In this document: positions 1 to 19,295 of the stretch, in pieces
How positions within the stretch are numbered: the first letter of the stretch is position 1
Layout of the letters: each line of letters starts with the position of its first letter
Virus record (IMG/VR): IMGVR_UViG_2563366887_000005
Span: 1-19,295 of that record
DNA from: a virus
Lineage: Duplodnaviria; Heunggongvirae; Uroviricota; Caudoviricetes
Direction: 5' to 3' (one strand)
Length of the DNA: 19,295 nt
Position numbers and translations under genes: made by a program
Notes under the pieces: model-generated
What the model was told of the DNA's origin: nothing
The model's input: only the letters and a program-made list of their open reading frames with translations
Databases searched by the model: none

Positions 1-1362
1 ATGTTTAAACCGGAACTCCTTTCCCCGGCGGGAACGCTGAAAAATATGCGTTACGCTTTCGCTTATGGCGCAGATGCTGTTTATGCGGGCCAGCCGCGTT
101 ACTCCCTGCGTGTGCGCAACAACGAATTCAACCACGAAAATCTTCAGCTCGGCATCAATGAAGCCCACGCGCTGGGGAAAAAGTTTTATGTCGTGGTCAA
201 CATTGCACCGCACAACGCCAAGCTGAAAACCTTTATCCGTGACCTGAAACCGGTGGTGGAAATGGGGCCGGATGCGCTGATTATGTCCGATCCAGGGCTG
301 ATTATGCTGGTGCGTGAGCACTTCCCTGAAATGCCGATCCACCTTTCGGTGCAGGCTAACGCCGTGAACTGGGCGACGGTGAAATTCTGGCAGCAAATGG
401 GCCTGACCCGCGTGATCCTCTCTCGCGAGCTGTCGCTGGAAGAGATTGAAGAGATCCGCAATCAGGTGCCGGATATGGAGATCGAGATCTTCGTTCACGG
501 CGCGCTGTGCATGGCCTACTCCGGTCGCTGCCTGCTCTCTGGCTATATCAACAAGCGCGACCCGAACCAGGGCACCTGCACCAACGCCTGCCGCTGGGAG
601 TACAACGTCCAGGAAGGGAAAGAAGATGATGTTGGCAACATCGTACACAAGTACGAGCCGATTCCGGTGCAAAATGTTGAGCCGACGCTGGGTATCGGCG
701 CACCAACCGACAAAGTGTTTATGATCGAAGAGGCCCAGCGTCCGGGCGAGTATATGACCGCGTTTGAAGATGAGCACGGCACTTACATCATGAACTCGAA
801 AGATCTGCGCGCCATCGCCCATGTAGAACGCCTGACCAAAATGGGCGTGCATTCGCTGAAAATCGAAGGCCGTACTAAATCTTTCTACTATTGCGCACGC
901 ACCGCACAGGTTTACCGTAAAGCTATCGATGACGCCGCTGCGGGCAAACCGTTCGATACCAGCCTGCTGGAAACTCTGGAAGGTCTGGCGCATCGTGGCT
1001 ATACCGAAGGTTTCCTTCGTCGTCATACTCACGACGATTATCAGAACTACGAATACGGTTATTCAGTTTCTGACCGCCAGCAGTTTGTTGGTGAGTTTAC
1101 CGGTGAGCGCAAGGGGGACCTCGCAGCGGTAGCGGTGAAAAATAAATTCTCCGTTGGCGACAGCCTTGAGCTGATGACGCCGCAAGGCAACATTAACTTT
1201 ACCCTTGAGCACATGGAAAACGCCAAAGGTGAAGCGATGCCGGTCGCACCAGGCGATGGTTATACTGTGTGGCTCCCGGTCCCGCAGGATCTTGAGCTCA
1301 ATTACGCGCTGCTGATGCGTAATTTCTCCGGGGAAACCACGCGTAACCCCCACGGTAAGTGA
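1..1362 (+). CDS. yegQ: Peptidase U32 family protein YegQ (tRNA hydroxylation protein TrhP), 453 aa
   Basis: Full-length ORF from ATG at 1; translation begins MFKPELLSPAGTLKNMRYAFAYGADAVYAGQPRY, recognised as E. coli YegQ; sits upstream of cyaR as in K-12. Confidence 0.9.
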   Translation: MFKPELLSPAGTLKNMRYAFAYGADAVYAGQPRYSLRVRNNEFNHENLQLGINEAHALGKKFYVVVNIAPHNAKLKTFIRDLKPVVEMGPDALIMSDPGLIMLVREHFPEMPIHLSVQANAVNWATVKFWQQMGLTRVILSRELSLEEIEEIRNQVPDMEIEIFVHGALCMAYSGRCLLSGYINKRDPNQGTCTNACRWEYNVQEGKEDDVGNIVHKYEPIPVQNVEPTLGIGAPTDKVFMIEEAQRPGEYMTAFEDEHGTYIMNSKDLRAIAHVERLTKMGVHSLKIEGRTKSFYYCARTAQVYRKAIDDAAAGKPFDTSLLETLEGLAHRGYTEGFLRRHTHDDYQNYEYGYSVSDRQQFVGEFTGERKGDLAAVAVKNKFSVGDSLELMTPQGNINFTLEHMENAKGEAMPVAPGDGYTVWLPVPQDLELNYALLMRNFSGETTRNPHGK

Positions 1363-3591: not shown

Positions 3592-5991
3592 TTAACCGTC
3601 ATGCATCATGCTGGCACGGGCGCGCGCACGTTTATCCCGCTCGTATTTTTCGAGCGCATCCTGTAACTGGCGGTCAAGCTGTGTCCCCGGCGCAGTACCA
3701 CCCGTCAGGCTGATGTGATATTCGTTTTTACTCTGGTCCACATAAGAGCGGCCAGCCGGTGCCGTGACCGGCTGATAAACCTGATAGCCTGCATAAGAGC
3801 TGGTCGCCGGAATATAACCACCGCTGCCATACGTGGCGGCTTGAGTTCTGGCGGCGGTCTGGTCAAGTGTGTCTGACTCTTTGTTGATAACACCGAGTTT
3901 TTCCAGTACCCAGTCAATACCGCTGCGCAGTTTGTTGAACGCATTAAGCGGCAGCATCAACGCGTCAGCCAGTGCCTGCCCGAACATGACACCCGTGTCA
4001 CGGCAACGGTTCAGGGTGTCCTGGGTGGCTTTGACGGGGGCAATCAGGTTTTTAAACCACTGCCACGCGGCCTGTAACTTTTCACCCAGCCAGTCAAACA
4101 GCGGCTTAAGTGGCGTGAACAGTTCCCCCACCGGCGCAAATGCCGCTTTCAGCCCTTCCACCACACCGCCAAAGAATGCGCTGACAGGCTCCCAGTATTT
4201 ACGGATAAGCAACGCCCCGGCGACAATTGCAGCCACCACGGCCACAACCGGCCAGCTAATCGCCCCGATGGCCGTCATAACGGCACTACCAACCGTCGTG
4301 AAGATTGCCCCCATTGCGCCTGCTGCCGCGATGATGGCATTGATGCCAGTGATAACCGGCCAGGCTACAAGACCAATTGCACCGATGATGCCAGTAAGCG
4401 CCAGCGCGCCACCGGCAATGATGCCAATGGTTGACGCCAGTGATTTGTTTTTCTGGATCCAGCCGTCGAGTTTTAACACATACTTTGTGGCCGTCTGTGT
4501 GAGCTTACGCAGTGCGCCTTCCTGCTGGTCAAACAGGTCTGTCCCCACCGCCTCATAAGCGGACTGAAACTCCTTAAAGTCACCGCCGAGGTTGTCCTGC
4601 ATGATATTTACCAGCTCGGCAGTCTTCCCGTCTGAGGCTTTAAACGCAGCGGTCAGTTTGTCCAGCTTTCCGGTTGAGGCGGCAGTCATCAGCACGGCAG
4701 CGGCTGAGCTGGCCTCCTCCCCGAAAATAGTTTTCATGTATTCAGCCTGCTGGGCAGTACCGAGCCGGTTTTTCTCAAAACTGGCCTGCATTTCTTTCAG
4801 AATGGTAAATATTGGCCGGGTGTTTCCTTTGCTGTCTGAGGTTTTCACTCCAAGCTCTTTGAGTGCATCCCATGCTTTTCCCGTCGGTGCCTGCAGGCGG
4901 CTTAACACGGCACGGCTTCCCGTCCCCGCCATTGAGCCTGTGATTTTTGCATCATGCAGCGCCCCGACCATTGCGGCGGTTTCTTCAATGCTGACACCGG
5001 CATTTTTTGCCACAGGTGCGGCATAGGTCAGCGCATCGCTCATGCCGTCAAAATCGGCGGCGGTTTTGTTCATCGTCATGGAGAGGACATCCCCGATATG
5101 AGCGACCTTATCGTTTGAAAGCTGAAAGGCGGATTTCATCCCCATCAGCAGGGCGGCGTTTTCTTCCATTGTGCGACGGTTCGCCAGCGCCATATTCAGC
5201 GTGACCGGCGTTGCCGCCTGAATGGCATCAACATCCCCACCGGCTTTCGCAATAATAATCTGCGCACCGGCTGCATCATCTGCCGAGGCTGCGGTATTGT
5301 CGCCGAGCTGGCGCGCCTGCTTGCGTAGTGCAGCCATTTCGGCGGAGTCTTTTGCCACACCGAGCACAGCCTGCAATTCTGAGTTTTTCTGCGCAAACTC
5401 ATAACCGGGCATCAGCAGCTTAACTCCGGCCATCGTTCCCGCCGCCGCAATCCCCACACCGGCAGCGCCCACTGAGGCCATATTTCCGGCCAGTTCCTTT
5501 CCGGCCTGATAACGCTGTTTTACTGCGTTAAGTTTTGCCTGTTGTGCACTGACACGCGCCAGTGCGTCACGCTGACGGTTAAGCTGTGCGGTGGTTTCAC
5601 TGATACGGTTTTTCAGTCCCTGCTCATCATGTGCAAGATTGCGGGTATTAATTCCCACAGCGGCCAGTTCCCGCTGCTGGCGTTTAACGGAGTCCGTCAG
5701 GCGGTTATATTTCGCCTGTAAGTCCTCCGCCGCACGCTTTGCGGATTCGCGCAGTTCCTCAACCAGAATGACCAGATGCCGCATACTACGCCCCAGCCTG
5801 TCCAGCTTCCAGACTACCAGAGTGTCACCTGCTGATAATGTTCTGAGCAGTTTTTTCAGCCCCGGCCTGTCGGACTTCGTGCCGCTGATTTTGTCCTCAA
5901 AAATCAGCTCACATCCTGCGCACTCCAGCGCATTACGCTGCAATTCCGTGTTCTGGTCATTTGTTGACACGCGTACATAGCCAATAAGCAT
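3592..5991 (-). CDS. T: Chimeric ORF: tail tape-measure protein (gpT-like, N-terminus missing) fused in frame to the first ~82 codons of a serine DNA invertase gene
   Basis: C-terminal ~700 aa show tape-measure features (long Ala/Gln-rich helical region, Gly/Ala-rich hydrophobic stretch IGIIAGGALALTGIIGAIGLVAWPV...). N-terminal MLIGYVRVSTNDQNTELQRNALECAGCELIFEDK...TLVVWKLDRLGRSMRHLVILVEELRE is a Pin/Gin/Hin-type resolvase catalytic domain. Junction estimated near 5745. Confidence 0.75.
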   Translation of the reverse strand: MLIGYVRVSTNDQNTELQRNALECAGCELIFEDKISGTKSDRPGLKKLLRTLSAGDTLVVWKLDRLGRSMRHLVILVEELRESAKRAAEDLQAKYNRLTDSVKRQQRELAAVGINTRNLAHDEQGLKNRISETTAQLNRQRDALARVSAQQAKLNAVKQRYQAGKELAGNMASVGAAGVGIAAAGTMAGVKLLMPGYEFAQKNSELQAVLGVAKDSAEMAALRKQARQLGDNTAASADDAAGAQIIIAKAGGDVDAIQAATPVTLNMALANRRTMEENAALLMGMKSAFQLSNDKVAHIGDVLSMTMNKTAADFDGMSDALTYAAPVAKNAGVSIEETAAMVGALHDAKITGSMAGTGSRAVLSRLQAPTGKAWDALKELGVKTSDSKGNTRPIFTILKEMQASFEKNRLGTAQQAEYMKTIFGEEASSAAAVLMTAASTGKLDKLTAAFKASDGKTAELVNIMQDNLGGDFKEFQSAYEAVGTDLFDQQEGALRKLTQTATKYVLKLDGWIQKNKSLASTIGIIAGGALALTGIIGAIGLVAWPVITGINAIIAAAGAMGAIFTTVGSAVMTAIGAISWPVVAVVAAIVAGALLIRKYWEPVSAFFGGVVEGLKAAFAPVGELFTPLKPLFDWLGEKLQAAWQWFKNLIAPVKATQDTLNRCRDTGVMFGQALADALMLPLNAFNKLRSGIDWVLEKLGVINKESDTLDQTAARTQAATYGSGGYIPATSSYAGYQVYQPVTAPAGRSYVDQSKNEYHISLTGGTAPGTQLDRQLQDALEKYERDKRARARASMMHDG
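5746..5991 (-). pseudogene. Serine DNA invertase (Pin/Gin/Hin/Cin family) 5' fragment; C-terminal HTH DNA-binding domain deleted
   Basis: The catalytic-Ser motif YVRVST is present, but the ORF switches to tape-measure sequence after ...LVEELRE; no invertase C-terminal domain is found anywhere in the window. Confidence 0.75.
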
Positions 5992-6058
5992 GATCATCCC
6001 CCTGAATAAAAACCGGGGATGATGCCAGTTAGCCATTATCTCTGCATTTTCATAAACG

Positions 6059-6092
6059 TTGGTTTGGGAGAAGCGGCAAAACGGAATGTAGG
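6059..6092. repeat. Inverted repeat, left arm (34 bp crossover site of the invertible tail-fibre segment)
   Basis: TTGGTTTGGGAGAAGCGGCAAAACGGAATGTAGG is the exact reverse complement of 7606-7639; encodes the conserved [10 protein letters not shown] junction peptide in both orientations. Confidence 0.8.
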
Positions 6093-6426
6093 TAACGGGC
6101 AAAACCAAATTCCGGATATGGCGGCGTTTGCCAGTTCACTTTCATCAACGGGTTTTCAAAAACTTCCTTCAGGTCTGATTATTCAGTGGGGTATTGTCAG
6201 TGGAGCATCAAACTATACGGTGACTTACCCGGTAACATTCCCAAATCGTTCACTTGCGCTGTTGGCTGTGCCACATACAACGTCGGTGGCTGGTATATCT
6301 GCAATGGGCATAGCGAACTGTTCTGATATCAGCAAATCACAGTTCTATATAATTGTTGGCGGTATATCTCAGGGAAAAATTGTCAAATATGAAAGGTCCT
6401 GTTTTTGGGTAGCAATCGGTGTATAG
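6059..6426 (+). CDS. Alternative tail-fibre C-terminal (variable) domain in the silent orientation (Sv'); no promoter or constant region of its own
   Basis: Shares the [20 protein letters not shown] junction and KLPxGxIxQWG pattern with the opposing 7266-7760 ORF; the reading frame begins inside the inverted repeat. Confidence 0.6.
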
Positions 6427-6434
6427 GTATATCT

Positions 6435-6830
6435 ATGATTTATTTCTCAAAATCGACTAATGGTTTTTTCTTTGATGGTATAAACAGCGACATGCCTGCT
6501 GACATTGTTGAGATAAGTACAGACTTATACAATGAATTAATTGCCGGACAGCAGGAAGGGGGTAAATTAATCACGTCAGATGAAAATGGTTTACCGGTAC
6601 TGAAATCTCCGGCGATTGATTATGTCGCACGTGCTGAAAATCAGCGAATGCAGTTACTTGCTCATGCCGATAATGTCACAGCTGACTGGCGGGTGGAATT
6701 AATGCTTGGTGATATCAGCAGTACAGATAAAGAAAAACTATCTGCCTGGATGGACTACAAAAAAGAAGTAAAAGCCGTCGACACTTCGACGGCTCCTGAG
6801 ATTAGCTGGCCTGAGTTACCGGAGGTGTAG
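6435..6830 (+). CDS. Tail-fibre assembly chaperone (Tfa, gpG/U'-like)
   Basis: Translation MIYFSKSTNGFFFDGINSDMPADIVEISTDLYNEL... has the typical Tfa N-terminus; start taken at ATG 6435 rather than the upstream TTG. Confidence 0.75.
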   Translation: MIYFSKSTNGFFFDGINSDMPADIVEISTDLYNELIAGQQEGGKLITSDENGLPVLKSPAIDYVARAENQRMQLLAHADNVTADWRVELMLGDISSTDKEKLSAWMDYKKEVKAVDTSTAPEISWPELPEV

Positions 6831-7245
6831 GCCATTCAATATCTGGAGCACTGGAGGTATCCACCAGTTCCAGTGCGTCCAGGTAATCCAGCCACAAATT
6901 ATATTGCGCCAGTTCCTCACCTTTCAGACGACCAATAGCTGATTTGCCAGGCCATTGCTTACTGTTCATGTATTCGTTAGCCTGGTTAATTAGTAGCTGT
7001 TTTTCTGATTCAGTAATTTCAATAAGCTCTTCATACGTGGGTGGAGGAATATCTGCCCACGCAGGCAGCCCATCATCTCCGGCAATACGGATTTTTCCTT
7101 GTGGCGGTTCAGCCATAAACTCACTGATAATATTTTGATTTACTTCCTTTGCGTCTGATAAATCCCATCCCTCTGATTTATATTTATCAATCATATCCAC
7201 AGGGAAAAAAGCATTATGCCTTGCGCTATAAACATATTCGTTCAT
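6802..7245 (-). CDS. Tail-fibre assembly chaperone (Tfa, gpG/U-like), partner of the currently expressed fibre C-terminus
   Basis: Translation MNEYVYSARHNAFFPVDMIDKYKSEGWDL...; convergent with the other Tfa, 3' ends overlapping. Confidence 0.75.
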   Translation of the reverse strand: MNEYVYSARHNAFFPVDMIDKYKSEGWDLSDAKEVNQNIISEFMAEPPQGKIRIAGDDGLPAWADIPPPTYEELIEITESEKQLLINQANEYMNSKQWPGKSAIGRLKGEELAQYNLWLDYLDALELVDTSSAPDIEWPTPPVTQAS

Positions 7246-7265
7246 ATAAATCACCCTGAATAAAA

Positions 7266-7760
7266 TTACTCACCAACAGCCCACCAACTGTAATTCATCG
7301 ATACTGTGGAGCTGGTTGATGCAGTTCTGTAAGCGGAATTAAAACCGGTTAGTGTTGGACCTTCTGCAGTCATCACGAATCCCCGTCCAGCGCCTAAAGG
7401 CGCACCACCATCACCAGAATGGGTAAGCATGGCGCAGTCCACTTCTTTAGGAAAAGGGATGCTGAATGTAATTCTCATTGTTTGCGTCGATAATGTCGGC
7501 GTAATCGCACCACGACCATATTGCAGGATTTTCCCGTTGGGTAATTTCATCCATCCATCACCACTGGCAAAAGAGGTCATGTCCGGTATCTGATTTTCCC
7601 CTGTTCCTACATTCCGTTTTGCCGCTTCTCCCAAACCAAGGTATGCGAGAAGACCAGCTACATCCTTTCCACTCAAATTAGTCAGCGTATTGTCCAGCGG
7701 TTGTTTACCTGCCAGCGCATTAAGCATTGTCGTGGCAAAGTTCGGATCGAGGAGCTGCAA
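7266..7760 (-). pseudogene. Tail-fibre protein (gpH-like) 3' fragment: short constant-region remnant plus variable C-terminal domain (Sv); most of the gene deleted
   Basis: The ORF runs through the right inverted repeat ([21 protein letters not shown]) but has only about 40 codons upstream of it before meeting terminase P sequence on the opposite strand. Confidence 0.65.
7606..7639. repeat. Inverted repeat, right arm (34 bp crossover site)
   Basis: Exact reverse complement of 6059-6092. Confidence 0.8.
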
Positions 7761-8378
7761 CGCTGCATGGTCGACACGCTGGAAGAATGGGAAGACTATG
7801 CGCCGTTTGCCACCAATCCGTTCGGCTCACGTCCGGTATGGATTGGTTACGACCCGTCACACCGTGGCGACAGCGCCGGATGCGTGGTACTGGCACCGCC
7901 GGTGGTGGCCGGTGGCAAATTCAGGATCCTTGAGCGTCACCAGTGGAAAGGCATGGACTTTGCCACCCAGGCAGAATCCATCCGCAAACTCACCGAAAAA
8001 TATAACGTTGAATACATCGGTATTGATGCCACCGGCCTCGGTGTCGGTGTGTTCCAGCTCGTGCGCTCGTTCTATCCCGCCGCTCGCGATATCCGCTACA
8101 CGCCGGAAATGAAAACCGCAATGGTCCTCAAGGCAAAAGACGTCATCCGCCGTGGCTGTCTGGAATATGACGTCAGCGCCACCGACATCACCAGCTCGTT
8201 TATGGCTATCCGCAAGACCATGACCAGCAGCGGACGCAGCGCCACCTATGAGGCCAGCCGCAGCGAGGAAGCCAGCCACGCCGACCTCGCCTGGGCGACC
8301 ATGCACGCTCTGTTAAATGAGCCACTCACCGCCGGTATCAGCACCCCGCTGACATCCACCATTCTGGAGTTTTACTGA
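7701..8378 (+). pseudogene. P: Terminase large subunit (gpP-like) C-terminal fragment; 5' two-thirds deleted
   Basis: The ORF ends 1 nt into the portal gene start (TGATG overlap), matching the P-Q operon arrangement, but only about 225 codons remain where P2 P is about 590 aa. The 5' boundary is uncertain (junction somewhere in 7640-7760). Confidence 0.7.
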
Positions 8379-9412
8379 TGAGCAAGAAAAAAAGGAAAAC
8401 ACCGCAACCTGCGGCAAAAAAAATGACCGCCAGCGCCCCGAAAATGGAGGCATTCACCTTTGGTGAGCCGGTGCCGGTACTCGACCGCCGTGACATTCTG
8501 GATTACGTCGAATGCATCAGTAACGGCAGATGGTATGAGCCACCAATCAGCTTTACCGGTCTGGCAAAAAGCCTGCGTGCTGCCGTGCATCACAGCTCAC
8601 CGATTTACGTCAAACGCAATATTCTGGCTTCAACGTTTATCCCGCACCCGTGGCTGTCCCAGCAGGATTTCAGCCGCTTTGTGCTGGATTTTCTGGTGTT
8701 CGGTAATGCGTTTCTGGAAAAGCGTTACAGCACCACTGGTAAGGTCATCAGACTGGAAACCTCACCGGCAAAATATACCCGCCGTGGTGTGGAAGAGGAT
8801 GTTTACTGGTGGGTGCCGTCCTTCAACGAGCCGACAGCCTTCGCGCCCGGCTCCGTGTTTCACCTGCTGGAGCCGGATATTAATCAGGAGCTGTACGGCC
8901 TGCCGGAATATCTCAGCGCCCTTAATTCTGCCTGGCTGAATGAGTCGGCCACGCTGTTTCGCCGCAAGTATTACGAAAACGGCGCTCATGCCGGATACAT
9001 CATGTACGTCACCGATGCCGTGCAGGATCGCAACGATATCGAAATGCTTCGCGAAAACATGGTGAAGTCAAAAGGCCGCAATAACTTTAAAAATCTGTTT
9101 CTCTATGCCCCGCAGGGGAAAGCCGACGGCATTAAAATTATCCCCCTCAGTGAAGTGGCAACGAAAGACGATTTTTTTAATATCAAAAAAGCCAGCGCCG
9201 CTGACCTGCTGGACGCGCACCGCATCCCCTTTCAGTTGATGGGCGGCAAGCCGGAGAACGTCGGGTCGCTGGGTGATATTGAGAAAGTGGCAAAGGTCTT
9301 TGTCCGCAATGAGCTTATCCCGTTACAGGACAGGATCCGCGAGATAAACGGCTGGCTTGGTCAGGAGGTCATCCGCTTTAAAAACTACTCACTGGACACT
9401 GACAACGGTTGA
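8378..9412 (+). CDS. Q: Portal protein (gpQ-like), 344 aa
   Basis: Full-length 344-aa ORF immediately upstream of cos, as in P2; basic N-terminus MSKKKRKTPQPAAKK. Confidence 0.85.
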   Translation: MSKKKRKTPQPAAKKMTASAPKMEAFTFGEPVPVLDRRDILDYVECISNGRWYEPPISFTGLAKSLRAAVHHSSPIYVKRNILASTFIPHPWLSQQDFSRFVLDFLVFGNAFLEKRYSTTGKVIRLETSPAKYTRRGVEEDVYWWVPSFNEPTAFAPGSVFHLLEPDINQELYGLPEYLSALNSAWLNESATLFRRKYYENGAHAGYIMYVTDAVQDRNDIEMLRENMVKSKGRNNFKNLFLYAPQGKADGIKIIPLSEVATKDDFFNIKKASAADLLDAHRIPFQLMGGKPENVGSLGDIEKVAKVFVRNELIPLQDRIREINGWLGQEVIRFKNYSLDTDNG

Positions 9413-9417
9413 ACATC

Positions 9418-9439
9418 GCCGCCTGCGGGCGGCTTTTTT
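9418..9439 (+). terminator. Rho-independent terminator after Q
   Basis: GCCGCC-TGCG-GGCGGC hairpin followed by TTTTTT. Confidence 0.7.
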
Positions 9440-9581
9440 ACAGCCCGTCATCACGCCCTCACACGCTCACCACCGTACAAAACATCCCGCAGACACACCA
9501 ACACCCCAACGGGCACACTAAACGCCGCCACGACGCGCTCAGACGCTGAAAAAATAAAATCAGCACCACCGCCAGCGCGCA

Positions 9582-9600
9582 GTGCTTTCCCCGCCTCGCC
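9582..9600. other. cos site (19-nt cohesive-end sequence GTGCTTTCCCCGCCTCGCC, reverse complement of the P2/P4 cos GGCGAGGCGGGGAAAGCAC)
   Basis: Exact match to the P2 cohesive end as I recall it, located about 170 bp past the Q stop in the expected orientation. Confidence 0.75.
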
Positions 9601-9838
9601 CGCCCGCTTCATGGGGCGATTTTAATGCAGTGGCATGATTTAGCCGAATCCGCGCCATTGTTGACATTGATGTTTTGATATGGATATGGCGTAAGCATGC
9701 GAATTCATTCAAGATGATGCAAGAATGATGAAATTATGGTACAGATCGATTAGCCATAATATGCCCCACGTTGTTACATGTGGTTCATAAGAGTTATGGC
9801 TCATAGGGATTTATACAAAATATATATAGGTAATTATC

Positions 9839-10903
9839 ATGTCAGGTGAAACTCAAAATATTTCAGCAATGGCAGAAAAAATATCTTCAGACCTATTCAA
9901 ATGGTTTAAGTGGGAACTCGTTGGTCCAACCAATGAAAACTTTCCATGCATGAAAAAAGATCAACATAAAACACTAGCCGGAACACATCCAACTGATGTT
10001 GTATTTTCTTATAAAGATCCCTATTTGAATAGAACTATTTTTTTAAATACTGATTTAAAAAGCTATATTAAAGGCTCAATTACAGCAACTAAAATGCGCA
10101 ATGCTTTAGTATCTCTGGCTAATTCTATTGACTGTGCTCAAGGTTGTAAAGAATGGAAGGAGCGTTATTCTTATAAAAATGGTGCATCAGAAGTCAGAGG
10201 CATGCTCTTTGTATACAACCATGACGGAGACTTTGACCAATCTTTTTATGATGTATTCTATCAATCTCACAATACTGAAACTGATAAGAAGAAAAGAGGT
10301 ATTAATCTTGACAATATACCGGTAAGAGCCGGTCAAAAAATACACATCATTGAACCAAGAACTATAAACTACTTGCAGTCAATAATCTGCGATTTATCAC
10401 AACTAAGCCACAAAAGAGAGTTTCCACTCGGTAAAAAATATCAATTCTTTTACCCAGACCTTTCACTACATAAAGTAAGCGGTTCGCCCGAAGAACTTCC
10501 AGCAACTGTAGAATTATTGACAGGCCCATTCCTTATTATAAAACATAATGACGTCAGACATTGCAATGAAGAAACATCACAATGGGAAACTACATTTAAA
10601 CATGGTTACATTATTTATTACAATGGCGAAGGAAAAAACGAGCTAGAGTTTATTTATATTCTAGACACGCTATCTAAATATCAATTACTAGATGGCAATG
10701 AAAATATAAGAATTAGAATAGTTAACCCTAACATACATAAAGATGTTCGCAGTATTTTTATGCGTGCGAAGGATAGTTATTGTCAAGAATGGGGGTTCGA
10801 TGAACATAAAAAAACGATAATAGATGCTATTGATTTTCAACAGGTAGAATTTACAAAGCCTCGTTTTAGTTCGGTAGAGATTGGTTGGGAGCGACAGGCA
10901 TGA
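9839..10903 (+). CDS. Hypothetical protein, 354 aa; first gene of the hotspot cassette; possible N-terminal PD-(D/E)xK-like nuclease motif (D53 ... D72-L-K74)
   Basis: Long ORF in an A+T-rich island; no resemblance to any P2 protein I know; stop overlaps the next start (ATGA). The motif assignment is from visual inspection only. Confidence 0.7.
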   Translation: MSGETQNISAMAEKISSDLFKWFKWELVGPTNENFPCMKKDQHKTLAGTHPTDVVFSYKDPYLNRTIFLNTDLKSYIKGSITATKMRNALVSLANSIDCAQGCKEWKERYSYKNGASEVRGMLFVYNHDGDFDQSFYDVFYQSHNTETDKKKRGINLDNIPVRAGQKIHIIEPRTINYLQSIICDLSQLSHKREFPLGKKYQFFYPDLSLHKVSGSPEELPATVELLTGPFLIIKHNDVRHCNEETSQWETTFKHGYIIYYNGEGKNELEFIYILDTLSKYQLLDGNENIRIRIVNPNIHKDVRSIFMRAKDSYCQEWGFDEHKKTIIDAIDFQQVEFTKPRFSSVEIGWERQA

Positions 10904-12012
10904 AAATTGGATTATATAGTGTAAATGATAAGGCAATGTTTGACGCATTGAATCAAACTAAAGTCACTCATGAAGATATGAAAAGTCTCTTTTTTAAAAG
11001 AGGAATGATTATATCCAAAGAGACTAAACGAAAAACATTGGCTTTGGATTTTTCCAGATACTATCATGGCTATTCTGATTTTGAATTTCTTTCAAACATA
11101 CTCGGTTCTGTTGGGCGGAGAGAAAAAGTATCAATTAACATTATTAATACAAATATAGATAAAAATAGTATGGAAAATACTATTAAATCTATTTGTGAAG
11201 ATCTTCAAAAAGAAGGCGATATAACTAATATAAATTACACCGAGAATGGTTTTGAAGTATCAATCAAATATGTGAAACTAGATTTCAAAATGAGCGAGTT
11301 TCGCCAATCCTCATCACGTGAAGCCAAAATACAAGTTGAAATGAATGAAAGCGGTGAATTTATCACCCGTTTCCCTCAAAATGCTAAAGCAAGGGAATTC
11401 AACGAGCGCCTCGTGGAGAAGATCAAAGAAGACAACAATGAGGATCCAGCCAGTCTTGATGAAATTTCGCTCGAAACTGTTAAATCACCAGCGGAAAGAA
11501 GCAAGTTTTTTGAGCAACTAATCTCAAGCATACCTAACTACAAATGCATTGACGTATCGGATGTATACGTTACGCATCCAATTCTTGAGTCAAATAAGTC
11601 TAACGAAAATGAAGATGATTCTGATGATGACGATACAATTATTGACACAGGATATCATATCTCCAAAGCTTCATTAAAAGGGCGCAGCGTTCTTGACTCT
11701 CTCGAGTTTAAAGAGTTGTTAGGAAAAGGATTTTATATTACCAAAATCATTTGGAGTTCTGTTGTTGACACTTATAAAGACTCGGACAAATATGAATTCG
11801 AGGCTCAATTTGTCGACCCAGATAATTGCAAGTTATTCTCGTATATCGTTCGCGGTGTTTATAAGTACAAAAATATAAACGAATATGCAAATCGTCAAAA
11901 TGTAGATAAAGAGAAGGAAAAACTGCTATTATTAGCACTTGAAAAAACCGCTCGCGAAATTTCAAACAGTATTATCGCCTCAAACACAATTGAGGTTGTT
12001 ACTGATAAATAA
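10900..12012 (+). CDS. Hypothetical protein, 370 aa; second gene of the hotspot cassette; contains an acidic DDSDDDD stretch
   Basis: ATG at 10900 overlaps the upstream TGA (translational coupling), with GGGAG 8 nt upstream; the ORF-track start at 10885 is a TTG and is less likely. Confidence 0.7.
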   Translation: MKIGLYSVNDKAMFDALNQTKVTHEDMKSLFFKRGMIISKETKRKTLALDFSRYYHGYSDFEFLSNILGSVGRREKVSINIINTNIDKNSMENTIKSICEDLQKEGDITNINYTENGFEVSIKYVKLDFKMSEFRQSSSREAKIQVEMNESGEFITRFPQNAKAREFNERLVEKIKEDNNEDPASLDEISLETVKSPAERSKFFEQLISSIPNYKCIDVSDVYVTHPILESNKSNENEDDSDDDDTIIDTGYHISKASLKGRSVLDSLEFKELLGKGFYITKIIWSSVVDTYKDSDKYEFEAQFVDPDNCKLFSYIVRGVYKYKNINEYANRQNVDKEKEKLLLLALEKTAREISNSIIASNTIEVVTDK

Positions 12013-12023
12013 AAGGAGTTGTT

Positions 12024-12695
12024 ATGAAAACAAAATGGTTTACTGCCAACTTCCCTGCTGGACTTGATAGTTTATATCAGTCTATCATTAACACTCCTTT
12101 TGATAGTGATAAAGGCTGGGGATTTAGTATCAACTCATATGAAGAAAATGCAATATCATCTCGATACATCGAGAAAGTAGAGGTCAACGAGATAATCGTT
12201 GATCCATATGGAAACGAGACTCAATATACACAGCTAAAATATATTCAATTTAACTTTTGGCTTTACACAACAAAAGGTAAAAACTTCATCTTAATCATTG
12301 AGTCGCCTCCCAGAAGCATTAAGAACTTCATATCAAACATAATTAAATCAACACATTCTGATTTTAATGTGTCAAATCTCAACATCAAAATTGAGGACTT
12401 CATTTATTTCCTGACCCCGCACTTTGAAAAAATACAAGTGCACAAGGCAAAATTAAAAGACTTAACGTTTAGCAAACACACATCCGGCATACTGGAACTT
12501 GAGTCATCAAGTGACGCACTTATGGAAATAAGAAACATTTTCAAAAATGCAAATTTTACAATTGATAAAGTTAAACTTAATGTTAAGGATGTGACCGGTT
12601 ATGAGTCATTAGAAATTAACACAAATGGGTCCATTTCACTTTCAGAGCAAATTTTTGACAAGGTGTATCTAACCATAGAAAGATTTGCCCTTTAA
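12024..12695 (+). CDS. Hypothetical protein, 223 aa; third gene of the hotspot cassette
   Basis: Strong SD (AAGGAG) 6 nt upstream of the ATG; 11-nt gap after gene 2; followed by a terminator. Confidence 0.7.
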   Translation: MKTKWFTANFPAGLDSLYQSIINTPFDSDKGWGFSINSYEENAISSRYIEKVEVNEIIVDPYGNETQYTQLKYIQFNFWLYTTKGKNFILIIESPPRSIKNFISNIIKSTHSDFNVSNLNIKIEDFIYFLTPHFEKIQVHKAKLKDLTFSKHTSGILELESSSDALMEIRNIFKNANFTIDKVKLNVKDVTGYESLEINTNGSISLSEQIFDKVYLTIERFAL

Positions 12696-12735
12696 GTTAA
12701 CAATACAATTCAATTCTTTTGATGTAATAAAAACG

Positions 12736-12766
12736 GCCTCATTAAAAATGAGGCTTATCGTTTTAT
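12736..12766 (+). terminator. Rho-independent terminator ending the hotspot operon
   Basis: GCCTCATT-AAA-AATGAGGC hairpin followed by a T-rich tract (TTATCGTTTTATT). Confidence 0.65.
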
Positions 12767-12860
12767 TATTGTAGCCATGCCATCTGGTTTTCACCTTTTC
12801 CTCCAGCACAGTATTAATACACACCTTATATAGTTTTATCTCTTAGATATTCACACTATT

Positions 12861-15140
12861 TCAATCTATTACAGTTGTGAACCCTGGCCATCCATCAGCG
12901 ACCGGATAAGCGAATTTTTTCCCGTCATAATTTACGGTCGCGCCACGCGCCAGCGCCTCAAGCTCCCATCGCTGTGGCCTGATACCGTTCTGAGCAAGGT
13001 CAACGCGGATACGGGTAATTTGCATTCGTTCCGACCGAGTCAGTCTGGCCGATGGCGCTATTTCATGCGGTTTTAACGGGCTTCCGTTTCTTTGCTGACG
13101 GTTTGGTCTTCTCAGACCGTGTTTTAATGCACCTCTGAGCGCCCTCACGACCTCCTGGTCATTCCATTCGATAACACCGTCATCTACCAGATTAAGCACT
13201 GCTACGGCGTGTTCAGAAGGCGTGGGAGCCGGTAACGAAGTATCACCACCGGTGAGCTTTCCACAGTTATTGACAGGACTCCGAGGCGCGGCGATGCCGC
13301 TTTTTAAAGTCAAAGGCTCAACGACCGGAACTTTCGGCACAATGCGCCAGTCCGTCGTTCTGGTGATATGAATATGACGCGCGCCGAGATGCGGCGCGTA
13401 AATGCCGACCACTCTCTCGACTTCTTCCTCGTACTCGTTAACGTCATCCGACGGGCTACGGGCGACCCTGACAGTCTGACAATCGCGCGGGACATTTGCC
13501 CCGCCCTGCGCGCTGATATACAACGCAAAATCACCACTGTCTGCGGCGGCGCGTGCAGCCTCGACGCGTTCGTCAAACTCATCAGCAATGCTGACGCCGC
13601 GAGGCAATTTGCGTAGCTCACGGTAAGCCCCCATTGTCGGCAGGCCAACCGTTTTAAATTGCGGAATGCGCCACGTTGACGCCCATGCGGTAACAGCCGC
13701 GGCAGTATCTTTCAGCGGCCTGCCAGTATCGTTATCGAGCTGACCATCCAGTGCATAGCCGTCGATGTTTTTTGAGATGTATTTCGCGATATATCCCGCA
13801 GCACCGCCCCGGTTAAGGTGTTTTGCCTGAAAACGGTTTCGCGCAGCGCCTCTTTCGTCACCATCCTCTTTGAGCGCATAGCGACGCATGATTTCGATAA
13901 TCTGGTTACGCTGGCGTGGATTACAAAAAAGCATCATATGCCAGTGCGGCGTTCCGTCGTGGTGTGGCTCGACGACACGCAAACCGTAGACCTGTAAATC
14001 ATTATCCTTGAATGCCGTGCGCATCAGGCTCCAGATATGGCAGAGATAACGCTGCGCATCCTTTGGATTAAATGCCTCATCATTCCAGCCGTGATTTAGC
14101 TGGACGGTTTTACTTTCGCCTTTTCCGACCTGACGTGTCGGGTGATACTTTGACGGCGCGGTCAGCGTGATAAACATCCCCACATCACCCTCTGCGGCGG
14201 CATAACGCTCAATTCCGGCGATGGTGTTCATCAGCTCCATCCGGCGAATTTCAGGATTAGAAATACTGCCCATCACCTTACTGATAAGGTCGATGCGCTC
14301 GCCGGTTTCCCTGTTTTCAAGGTCACACGATTTAAGAAATTCCAGATTTGCCTGGCGGCGTGCACGCACATCACGAATGGCATGTTTACTGGCATAAGGA
14401 GAACGGTCTTTATTGACCTCCCCGACAGCAATCAGTAACGCCTCATGCCAGCGCATACGCTGGCCTTTAAGCTGATGAGTCCACCACTCATCGTTAAACA
14501 GACGGGCAATGGCAGAATATGCCTGCCTCGTGGTTATCTGTCCTTTACGGTATTTTTTCCAGTAGAGCGGGGAAATATTGAAAGCACGTGCAGCGCCAGC
14601 AACATGACCATACAGGTGAGTCTGCGCCTCATCCGTAAACAGCGATTCTTTTTCGCCATGTGCATCAACCCATGCATCGCAGAGTTCCTCATACATCATG
14701 AAAAGCTGCGATGAGATACGGGCGGCAAACTTTTTCAGCTCCTTGTCATTCATCCCCGGCAGGCGCGCATAGTGGTCACGCTCTGCCAGAAACAGTAACG
14801 ACGCGTCGGTGTTCATTTCATGGCGCTGATTCACGCGCTCAATGCGCGGCCATAAACGACGCTGAAAAGTGGATGTGAGGAAATAAAACCCGTGCACCGG
14901 GCTTTTATTGCGCCGGATGTAGTCATAGCGTGAAGTAAACAGCGAGCGCAAAAAGTAAGGCAGGCGGTTAATCGTGGATAAAACACCTTGCACCTGACGC
15001 ATCTCGTCACGTGTAAGGGGTCTTTCGCGCCCGACAGCCTCGCGTGGCGCGTTCCATGCATAAGCACCGGTAAACGCCTTACCGGTGCCTGCGGCAAATG
15101 CTGACGGAGGGACAAAACGCCCGGAGGCTTTAACGGCCAT
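12861..15140 (-). CDS. A: P2 gpA-like replication initiation endonuclease (rolling-circle initiator)
   Basis: Translation MAVKASGRFVPPSAFAAGTGKAFTGAYAWNAPREAVGRERPLTRDEMRQVQGVL... matches P2 A along its length as I recall it; start taken at ATG 15140 rather than the upstream TTG. Confidence 0.9.
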   Translation of the reverse strand: MAVKASGRFVPPSAFAAGTGKAFTGAYAWNAPREAVGRERPLTRDEMRQVQGVLSTINRLPYFLRSLFTSRYDYIRRNKSPVHGFYFLTSTFQRRLWPRIERVNQRHEMNTDASLLFLAERDHYARLPGMNDKELKKFAARISSQLFMMYEELCDAWVDAHGEKESLFTDEAQTHLYGHVAGAARAFNISPLYWKKYRKGQITTRQAYSAIARLFNDEWWTHQLKGQRMRWHEALLIAVGEVNKDRSPYASKHAIRDVRARRQANLEFLKSCDLENRETGERIDLISKVMGSISNPEIRRMELMNTIAGIERYAAAEGDVGMFITLTAPSKYHPTRQVGKGESKTVQLNHGWNDEAFNPKDAQRYLCHIWSLMRTAFKDNDLQVYGLRVVEPHHDGTPHWHMMLFCNPRQRNQIIEIMRRYALKEDGDERGAARNRFQAKHLNRGGAAGYIAKYISKNIDGYALDGQLDNDTGRPLKDTAAAVTAWASTWRIPQFKTVGLPTMGAYRELRKLPRGVSIADEFDERVEAARAAADSGDFALYISAQGGANVPRDCQTVRVARSPSDDVNEYEEEVERVVGIYAPHLGARHIHITRTTDWRIVPKVPVVEPLTLKSGIAAPRSPVNNCGKLTGGDTSLPAPTPSEHAVAVLNLVDDGVIEWNDQEVVRALRGALKHGLRRPNRQQRNGSPLKPHEIAPSARLTRSERMQITRIRVDLAQNGIRPQRWELEALARGATVNYDGKKFAYPVADGWPGFTTVID

Positions 15141-15405
15141 ATGAGCCAAAAGCCTCTGAACAACGCTTGCTGAGTTGCTCAACCTGCGCGTTTAAATCAG
15201 CAAAAGACTTTGCGCTTCCGGTCAGAATATCGTGATGCATCAGGCCGGAAACGAGCTGGCTTAATTTCGGGTAATAACCAACCACCGCCAGCCATTCCTG
15301 ACCGGCGTTTTTACCGCTTTCCGCTCTCTTTTTCTCGTGGAGAATAAACTGAAAGCTGTCACTGGTAACGACATAACGTTCGCCAATTTCGATACGAATA
15401 CTCAT
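15130..15405 (-). CDS. P2 Orf83-like small protein
   Basis: 91-aa ORF translationally coupled to orf82 (ATGA overlap) and abutting A; position matches the P2 orf80-83 block. Confidence 0.65.
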   Translation of the reverse strand: MSIRIEIGERYVVTSDSFQFILHEKKRAESGKNAGQEWLAVVGYYPKLSQLVSGLMHHDILTGSAKSFADLNAQVEQLSKRCSEAFGSYGR

Positions 15406-18977: not shown

Positions 18978-19295
18978 TCACTCTCCACATTTGAATGTCA
19001 GACGAGCGACACCATGTAATCCTACACCTTCTGTCTTCAGCTCAACTATTTGCATTTTTTTGCCCTGAGTAACACAGAAATGAGTTGCATCATTTTTTAC
19101 TATATTTTCTGCACCAGATATTCTGCCCCTGGCTAAAGAAGCTTCGGCTTCGGTGTAGTATTGGTTATCGAGTTTACGCTGAATATTACTTTTATATGCA
19201 AGACCAAATTTACCGATACTTGTCTCATCATTATGCACAGCACAACCAGACATAATAAAAATACTAATTAATGATATAGCAGCTATCTTTTTCAT
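18978..19295 (-). CDS. yegR: Putative lipoprotein YegR, 105 aa
   Basis: MKKIAAISLISIFIMSGC signal peptide with lipobox; 105 aa; sits after the P2 remnant as in K-12. Confidence 0.75.
   Translation of the reverse strand: MKKIAAISLISIFIMSGCAVHNDETSIGKFGLAYKSNIQRKLDNQYYTEAEASLARGRISGAENIVKNDATHFCVTQGKKMQIVELKTEGVGLHGVARLTFKCGE

Follow-up and report, generated by a model that had tools for sequence, protein, structure and literature searches.

Two anti-phage systems are the closest described relatives of the locus presented here. The first one, 'hp + hp + hp', was cloned from Escherichia coli E1114 (sequences in Table S2A) and protected against P1 only out of eight phages, with 'no clear predicted domain' and no mechanism reported (Rousset et al. 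2022, PMC9122126). The second one, GAPS4, is known from Vibrio parahaemolyticus and E. coli RiKo 2299/09 and consists of two genes, GAPS4a and GAPS4b, which are sufficient for a protection extending to many phages (Mahata et al., bioRxiv 10.1101/2025.09.07.674715). GAPS4a carries the motif H-G-x-D ... S-x-K, in which the D59A (Vibrio) and D49A (E. coli RiKo) substitutions abolish defence, and assembles with GAPS4b in a 2:2 complex; DNA breaks, for example those resulting from nalidixic acid, trigger the system, which degrades both host and phage DNA (bioRxiv 10.1101/2025.09.07.674715). The present analysis deals with three adjacent genes, named here Hp1, Hp2 and Hp3, located at positions 9839-12695 of a stretch of 19,295 nucleotides (the window) from a Caudoviricetes virus, IMG/VR record IMGVR_UViG_2563366887_000005. 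These three genes are an intact copy of the E1114-type system (3HP) inserted at the hotspot between gpQ and gpA in a P2-like prophage. 3HP, which DefenseFinder names Rst_3HP, is a validated anti-phage system that has stood without predicted domains or mechanism since 2022. A 2024 survey left Rst_3HP unclassified. The best explanation of the data, to which a probability of about 0.75 is given, is an intact 3HP in which Hp1 would be a PD-(D/E)xK DNA-cleaving effector, Hp2 an RdgC-like sensor or scaffold and Hp3 an obligatory subunit.

All three genes are on the plus strand and tightly packed. Hp1 (gene 1, 9839-10903) encodes 354 amino acids (41 kDa), with a putative N-terminal PD-(D/E)xK nuclease domain followed by a C-terminal alpha/beta region; the ATG of Hp2 (gene 2, 10900-12012, 370 amino acids) overlaps the gene 1 stop codon (ATGA); and Hp3 (gene 3, 12024-12695, 223 amino acids) is preceded by AAGGAG. 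Each protein matches its PADLOC model over nearly its full length (Hp1, PDLC03004, 2e-63; Hp2, PDLC03005, 4e-37; Hp3, PDLC03006, 5e-8), and the number of genes, their order and the gpQ-gpA locus are those of the E1114 system. On the other hand, the allele of the window is divergent from the tested proteins, with BLASTP identities of 35% for Hp1 (E 1e-67), 31% for Hp2 (2e-39) and 19% for Hp3 (1e-10). The trio that appears in Table S5A of Rousset et al. 2022 (PMC9122126), WP_024160514, WP_001398851 and WP_032238998, is the product of a copy of the locus that is 99% identical and lies in another E. coli genome.

The initial annotation had pointed out a possible PD-(D/E)xK signature near the N-terminus of gene 1, with the caution that short motifs of this kind arise by chance. 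Translation of the open reading frame (ORF) confirms the numbering given for the three residues concerned, the motif reading ...AGTHPTD53VVFSYKDPYLNRTIFLNTD72LK74SY..., and the tested E1114 Hp1 carries the equivalent T-H-P-S-D ... L-N-T-D-L-K. The caution was justified, since the bare pattern is not significant when compared with shuffled copies of Hp1: the loose form, D-x(10-30)-[DE]-x-K, can be placed at nine sites of Hp1 and is present in 95% of the shuffles, and the strict form, with a proline at most two residues before the aspartate and a hydrophobic residue three positions before [DE]-x-K, in 15% of them. The pattern by itself thus carries little weight, and the case must rest on conservation, fold and homology.

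Among 76 Hp1 homologues of 43-87% identity, H50, P51, D53, D60, P61, N70, D72, L73 and K74 show no variation. When the set is widened to 81 sequences, including 79 database loci at 31-87% identity and spanning Proteobacteria, Cyanobacteria, Bacteroidota, Desulfobacterota, Verrucomicrobiota and Acidobacteriota, every member (81/81) retains H50, P51, D53, D72, L73, K74, S75 and Y76. It is this conservation that lifts the motif above chance. Its 'PD' half, H50-P51-T52-D53, corresponds to positions 9986-9997 (+) and matches the H-G-x-D of GAPS4a, and its '(D/E)xK' half, D72-L73-K74, to positions 10052-10060 (+). A further candidate active-site residue, E4 (9848-9850, +), stands at the start of the first helix and is present in 77 of the 81 sequences, the other four having gaps, as well as in all five GAPS4a sequences compared, as part of a G-E pair; E4 may thus take part in catalysis.

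The AlphaFold2 model of Hp1, built from the 76-sequence alignment, has a mean pLDDT of 88.0 and a pTM of 0.87. It displays over residues 1-135 or so (9839-10243, +) a predicted restriction-endonuclease-like core with the alpha-beta-beta-beta-alpha-beta succession, namely helix 2-22, strands 49-52, 54-60 and 65-76, helix 83-100 and strand 117-127. In this model D53 opens the second strand, between 49-52 and 54-60, and D72-x-K74 lies within the third, which is the canonical placement; the features that define the superfamily, the core fold together with a conserved acidic residue opening strand 2 and a conserved (D/E)-x-K in strand 3, are therefore both present in the predicted structure. The signature proposed initially is thus borne out by the conservation and by the predicted fold, the latter being one of the checks that had been suggested for it. 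At the end of the fourth core strand, the triplet N127-H128-D129 (10217-10225) is found in 81, 78 and 80 of the 81 sequences respectively. GAPS4a does not conserve this triplet, which may be a further element of the active site or of metal binding peculiar to the 3HP branch.

The nuclease call for gene 1 is correct and is not new. The precomputed Pfam family PF26115 is found on 119 of the 120 Hp1 homologues listed, including the 100%-identical cluster P0001, and the only one devoid of it is a partial protein of 231 amino acids. Some homologues bear the UniRef label 'GAPS4 PD-(D/E)XK nuclease domain-containing protein', and WP_024160514.1 is named 'PD-(D/E)XK nuclease domain-containing protein' in RefSeq. 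As the domain is already in Pfam and RefSeq and the system is already catalogued, this part of the finding has to be regarded as known. RefSeq naming is inconsistent, near-identical Hp1 proteins being called either 'hypothetical protein' or 'PD-(D/E)XK nuclease domain-containing protein'. The Pfam scan gave no match for Hp1, Hp2 or Hp3 in a copy that contains neither PF26115 nor PF26110; for Hp1 and Hp2 this says nothing, as genuine GAPS4a and GAPS4b go unmatched in that copy too. The NCBIfam scan likewise gave no match for the three proteins, and the PHROGs search of the trio returned 'unknown function' families only.

Comparison with the GAPS4 proteins, whose sequences were taken from the supplements of the preprint (bioRxiv 10.1101/2025.09.07.674715), identifies Hp1 as a remote full-length homologue of GAPS4a. 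BLASTP gave an E value of 1e-6, and hhalign, across some 200 collinear columns, gave 95% (E 3e-8) and 93% (E 3e-7), with T-H-P-T-D53 of Hp1 aligned onto T-H-G-I-D49 of GAPS4a, that is, onto the essential aspartate. The residues common to both are G3, E4, W25, C37, H43, H50, D53, C99, F124 and E225. Both systems thus share an N-terminal PD-(D/E)xK domain (PF26115) with an H-x-x-D on the essential aspartate, and in both the nuclease gene comes first and is followed by a partner gene, Hp2 being similar in size to GAPS4b. They differ in that Hp1 reads H-P-x-D and a canonical D-x-K, against H-G-x-D and S-x-K in GAPS4a, and in that 3HP has an obligatory third gene without GAPS4 counterpart. By NCBIfam Hp1 does not belong to the GapS4a family, and it is best described as a member of a sister family. 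Compared with the classical PD-(D/E)xK nucleases (Upx, AF1548/Mrr-like, NucS, the FokI cleavage domain, Shedu SduA, Hachiman HamA and Hjc), to which its identity is 8-15%, Hp1 has an extra invariant histidine three residues before the aspartate, a different C-terminal region and different partners, with no sequence-level match to a solved structure.

Hp2 appears to be a remote homologue of GAPS4b, visible only by profile-profile comparison: with a broad profile of 77 sequences, hhalign gave 92% (E 6e-7) over 245 collinear columns starting from the N-terminus. Its AlphaFold2 model (pLDDT 82.7) starts with a domain of four helices at the N-terminus and continues with an alpha/beta body whose predicted fold is RdgC-like. 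RdgC of E. coli (PDB 2OWL) is a recombination-associated protein forming a ring dimer that encircles DNA. Because this is the fold of a DNA-encircling ring, Hp2 is likely a DNA-binding sensor or scaffold. Neither RdgC nor the RdgC-like proteins RexA, Iml3/Chl4 and CENP-L/N have sequence similarity to Hp2, which differs from them by its additional N-terminal helical domain and by a conserved acidic disordered loop. Homologues of Hp2 carry no precomputed Pfam domain, and so no PF26110; a Pfam RdgC match was found in none of 48 homologues (alignment A2), and the search of PDB sequences with the Hp2 profile gave nothing relevant. The GAPS4 preprint makes no mention of RdgC (bioRxiv 10.1101/2025.09.07.674715).

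The acidic loop (residues 226-252, HPILESNKSNENEDDSDDDDTIIDTGY; 11575-11655, +) lies inside the RdgC-like body, includes the run NENEDDSDDDD and is predicted to be disordered, the pLDDT being below 50 at residues 230-247. Its charge is kept and its sequence is variable, with a median of 10 aspartates or glutamates in 26 residues and a net charge of -5 or lower in 79% of 77 homologues. Such a loop could be an autoinhibitory DNA mimic. By eye, no similar acidic run is seen at the corresponding position of GAPS4b from RiKo.

Hp3 has no recognisable domain. It gave no match among Pfam families or PDB sequences, and none of the libraries searched brought out a transmembrane or enzymatic signature in it; its family counts 477 cluster representatives, and most of the 150 listed are full-length, at about 220-240 amino acids. 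From these comparisons Hp3 is a stand-alone family, its members being about 225 amino acids long, with no counterpart in GAPS4. An arrangement in which Hp3 would be a second RdgC-like half, as in Iml3/Chl4, was considered and found unsupported, hhalign of Hp3 against GAPS4b, Hp2, Hp1 and RdgC giving nothing significant. The trio is obligate: among the 72 loci in which 2 kb or more follow the Hp1 gene, homologues of both Hp2 and Hp3 follow directly on the same strand in 70, and Hp3 is present in all 72. In the other two loci (L056 and L078), Hp1 and Hp3 are present and no intact Hp2 ORF was detected between them, though the spacing allows one; frameshifts, assembly errors or decayed copies may account for it.

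Taken together, these observations can be arranged in the following model. E4, H50, D53, D72 and K74 would form the predicted metal-dependent active site of Hp1, which by analogy with GAPS4 would be a metal-dependent DNase held by Hp2; the latter, as an RdgC-like DNA ring or clamp, would sense broken or linear DNA arising in infection and license Hp1. Once activated, Hp1 would degrade DNA and the infection would abort, in the manner of GAPS4, with Hp3 as a possible regulator or gate. Hp1 would then most likely be the DNA-cleaving effector, and the reading of the initial annotation, with gene 1 as effector nuclease and genes 2 and 3 as sensor or regulatory partners, is on this analysis supported. 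We infer that Hp1 cleaves DNA, that DNA ends or breaks are the trigger and that Hp2 forms a ring, as well as any role for Hp3.

Several observations weigh against this model. Foldseek comparison of the Hp1 model with the PDB gave no match at E<=1e-3, the weak matches including several proteins of the same fold, and PDB sequence searches with Hp1 and with its profile gave nothing relevant. The closeness of E4, D53, D72 and K74 in the predicted structure is deduced from their positions in secondary-structure elements. Both MAFFT and hhalign set the lysine of GAPS4a under D72 of Hp1 and not under K74, an offset of two residues that leaves it on the same face of the strand. Hp1 has no match to the NCBIfam GapS4a model (NF047933) at E<=1, true GAPS4a scoring 291 bits against a cut-off of 270, and Hp2 has none to the GapS4b model (NF047934); a narrower Hp2 profile also gave a weaker result against GAPS4b (13.6%, E 2e-3). 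The likeness of Hp2 to RdgC is read from one predicted model, and neither Hp2 nor GAPS4b shows any signal against the sequence of E. coli RdgC (hhalign 0.3% for Hp2). The reported ranges of protection differ too, the tested 3HP acting on P1 only and GAPS4 on many phages; with this narrower range, the trigger and range of 3HP may differ from those of GAPS4.

Three other explanations were weighed. That the motif arose by chance, gene 1 being without a nuclease fold, would agree with its recurrence in 95% (loose) or 15% (strict) of shuffles and with the lack of any match to Hp1 in the Pfam, NCBIfam and PDB sequence searches; this explanation is rejected, as far as computation goes, by the conservation and the predicted fold, and is considered highly improbable. 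Hp1 could also be an active nuclease in a system working otherwise than GAPS4, for example through a restriction-like recognition of a phage DNA feature (a modification, a replication intermediate or a structure) without host killing, or as an RNase, the PD-(D/E)xK fold including RNA cleavers such as tRNA-splicing endonucleases. The P1-only protection, the extra subunit, the D-x-K of Hp1 as against the S-x-K of GAPS4a and the scores of Hp1 and Hp2 below the GapS4a and GapS4b family models all go in this direction. However, the homology of Hp1 and Hp2 to GAPS4a and GAPS4b is collinear and full-length, an RdgC-like fold of the non-specific DNA-ring type suits the sensing of DNA topology or ends, and the cassette holds no methyltransferase or other self-protection gene, so that this explanation is judged unlikely.

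A slightly less likely one still is that Hp1 has the PD-(D/E)xK fold without being the killing effector, acting instead as a DNA-binding or sensing module or as a signal-generating nickase, with growth arrest or inhibition of the phage brought about by Hp3 or Hp2. Catalysis is indeed not proven by the fold alone, and Hp3, obligatory in 72 of 72 loci and without recognisable domain, could be the effector. Nevertheless, deep divergence has left every canonical catalytic position of Hp1 unchanged, an unusual situation for PD-(D/E)xK domains that are inactivated; in the homologous GAPS4 the a and b proteins are enough, with the aspartate essential; and Hp3 is devoid of transmembrane or enzymatic signatures in the libraries searched.

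Beyond the assignment of Hp1 as DNA-cleaving effector, it is tentatively proposed, at somewhat less than even odds, that 3HP and GAPS4 are two branches of one family, in which a PD-(D/E)xK nuclease would be carried by an RdgC-like ring that threads onto or clamps broken or linear DNA and thereby licenses it. Hp3, an addition of the 3HP branch, and the acidic loop of Hp2 may act as gates of this ring, making the trigger narrower or different. If true, 3HP would thereby obtain a first mechanism and the GAPS4 sensor a named fold. The kinship of 3HP with GAPS4, the RdgC-like fold of Hp2 and Hp3 as an extra unexplained subunit were found in no paper; no paper naming both systems was found among those searched, and the protein accessions of the window are not among the GAPS4 homologues in the portion of the preprint's supplements that was available. 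The nuclease confirmation offers E4, H50, D53, D72 and K74 as mutagenesis targets, and the hypothesis that breaks trigger DNA degradation by way of an RdgC-like DNA ring can be put to the test; the gain is modest, because the nuclease call for Hp1 is already in Pfam and RefSeq.

The cassette sits between the portal gene gpQ (8378-9412) and the convergent replication endonuclease gene gpA (12861-15182), which is the cos-proximal P2 hotspot defined by Rousset et al. 2022 (PMC9122126). This hotspot forms a low-GC island (9700-12860), the cassette having 33.9% GC and its flanks 52.3% and 47.9%. Its left boundary is marked by a terminator-like hairpin directly after gpQ (9418-9433, +) and the right end of the cassette by a bidirectional one, present on both strands between gene 3 and gpA (12735-12755). 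Over positions 9500-9660 the match to P2-like phage genomes, at their cos-proximal end, is 92-94%, and the promoter scan upstream of gene 1 gave nothing convincing. The allele is rare, 10 of 5,426 complete E. coli genomes covering at least 80% of the cassette (9839-12695), nine of them at 98.9-99.9% identity and one as a variant at 76% nucleotide identity. A near-identical cassette is found in a prophage bordered by yegR in another genome and adjoins pflA in a third. At its left end the window consists of a chromosomal gene, trhP (yegQ), the two end segments considered being 1-1362 (+) and 18978-19295 (-). From these differing chromosomal sites, the 3HP allele travels in P2-like prophages at different attachment sites.

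The prophage is defective, given that only the C-terminal 225 amino acids of the P2 terminase ATPase subunit are encoded (7701-8378, +); in a related genome this remnant is annotated as a pseudogene, in fusion with a tail tube gene that is truncated. No damage is apparent in the defence cassette, gpA, the cox/C region or the integrase gene. Positions 6019-7760 (about 44% GC) have the layout of a Gin/Cin-type invertible host-range segment, in which C-terminal tail-fibre fragments (6019-6426, +; 7266-7760, -) and tail-fibre assembly genes (6405-6830, +; 6802-7254, -) are each in mirror orientation. An ORF of 838 amino acids (3592-6108, -) is a chimera, residues 36-122 resembling the DNA invertase family phrog_125 and residues 112-834 a tail tape measure protein, suggesting that a deletion joined a fragment of the invertase gene to the tape measure gene.
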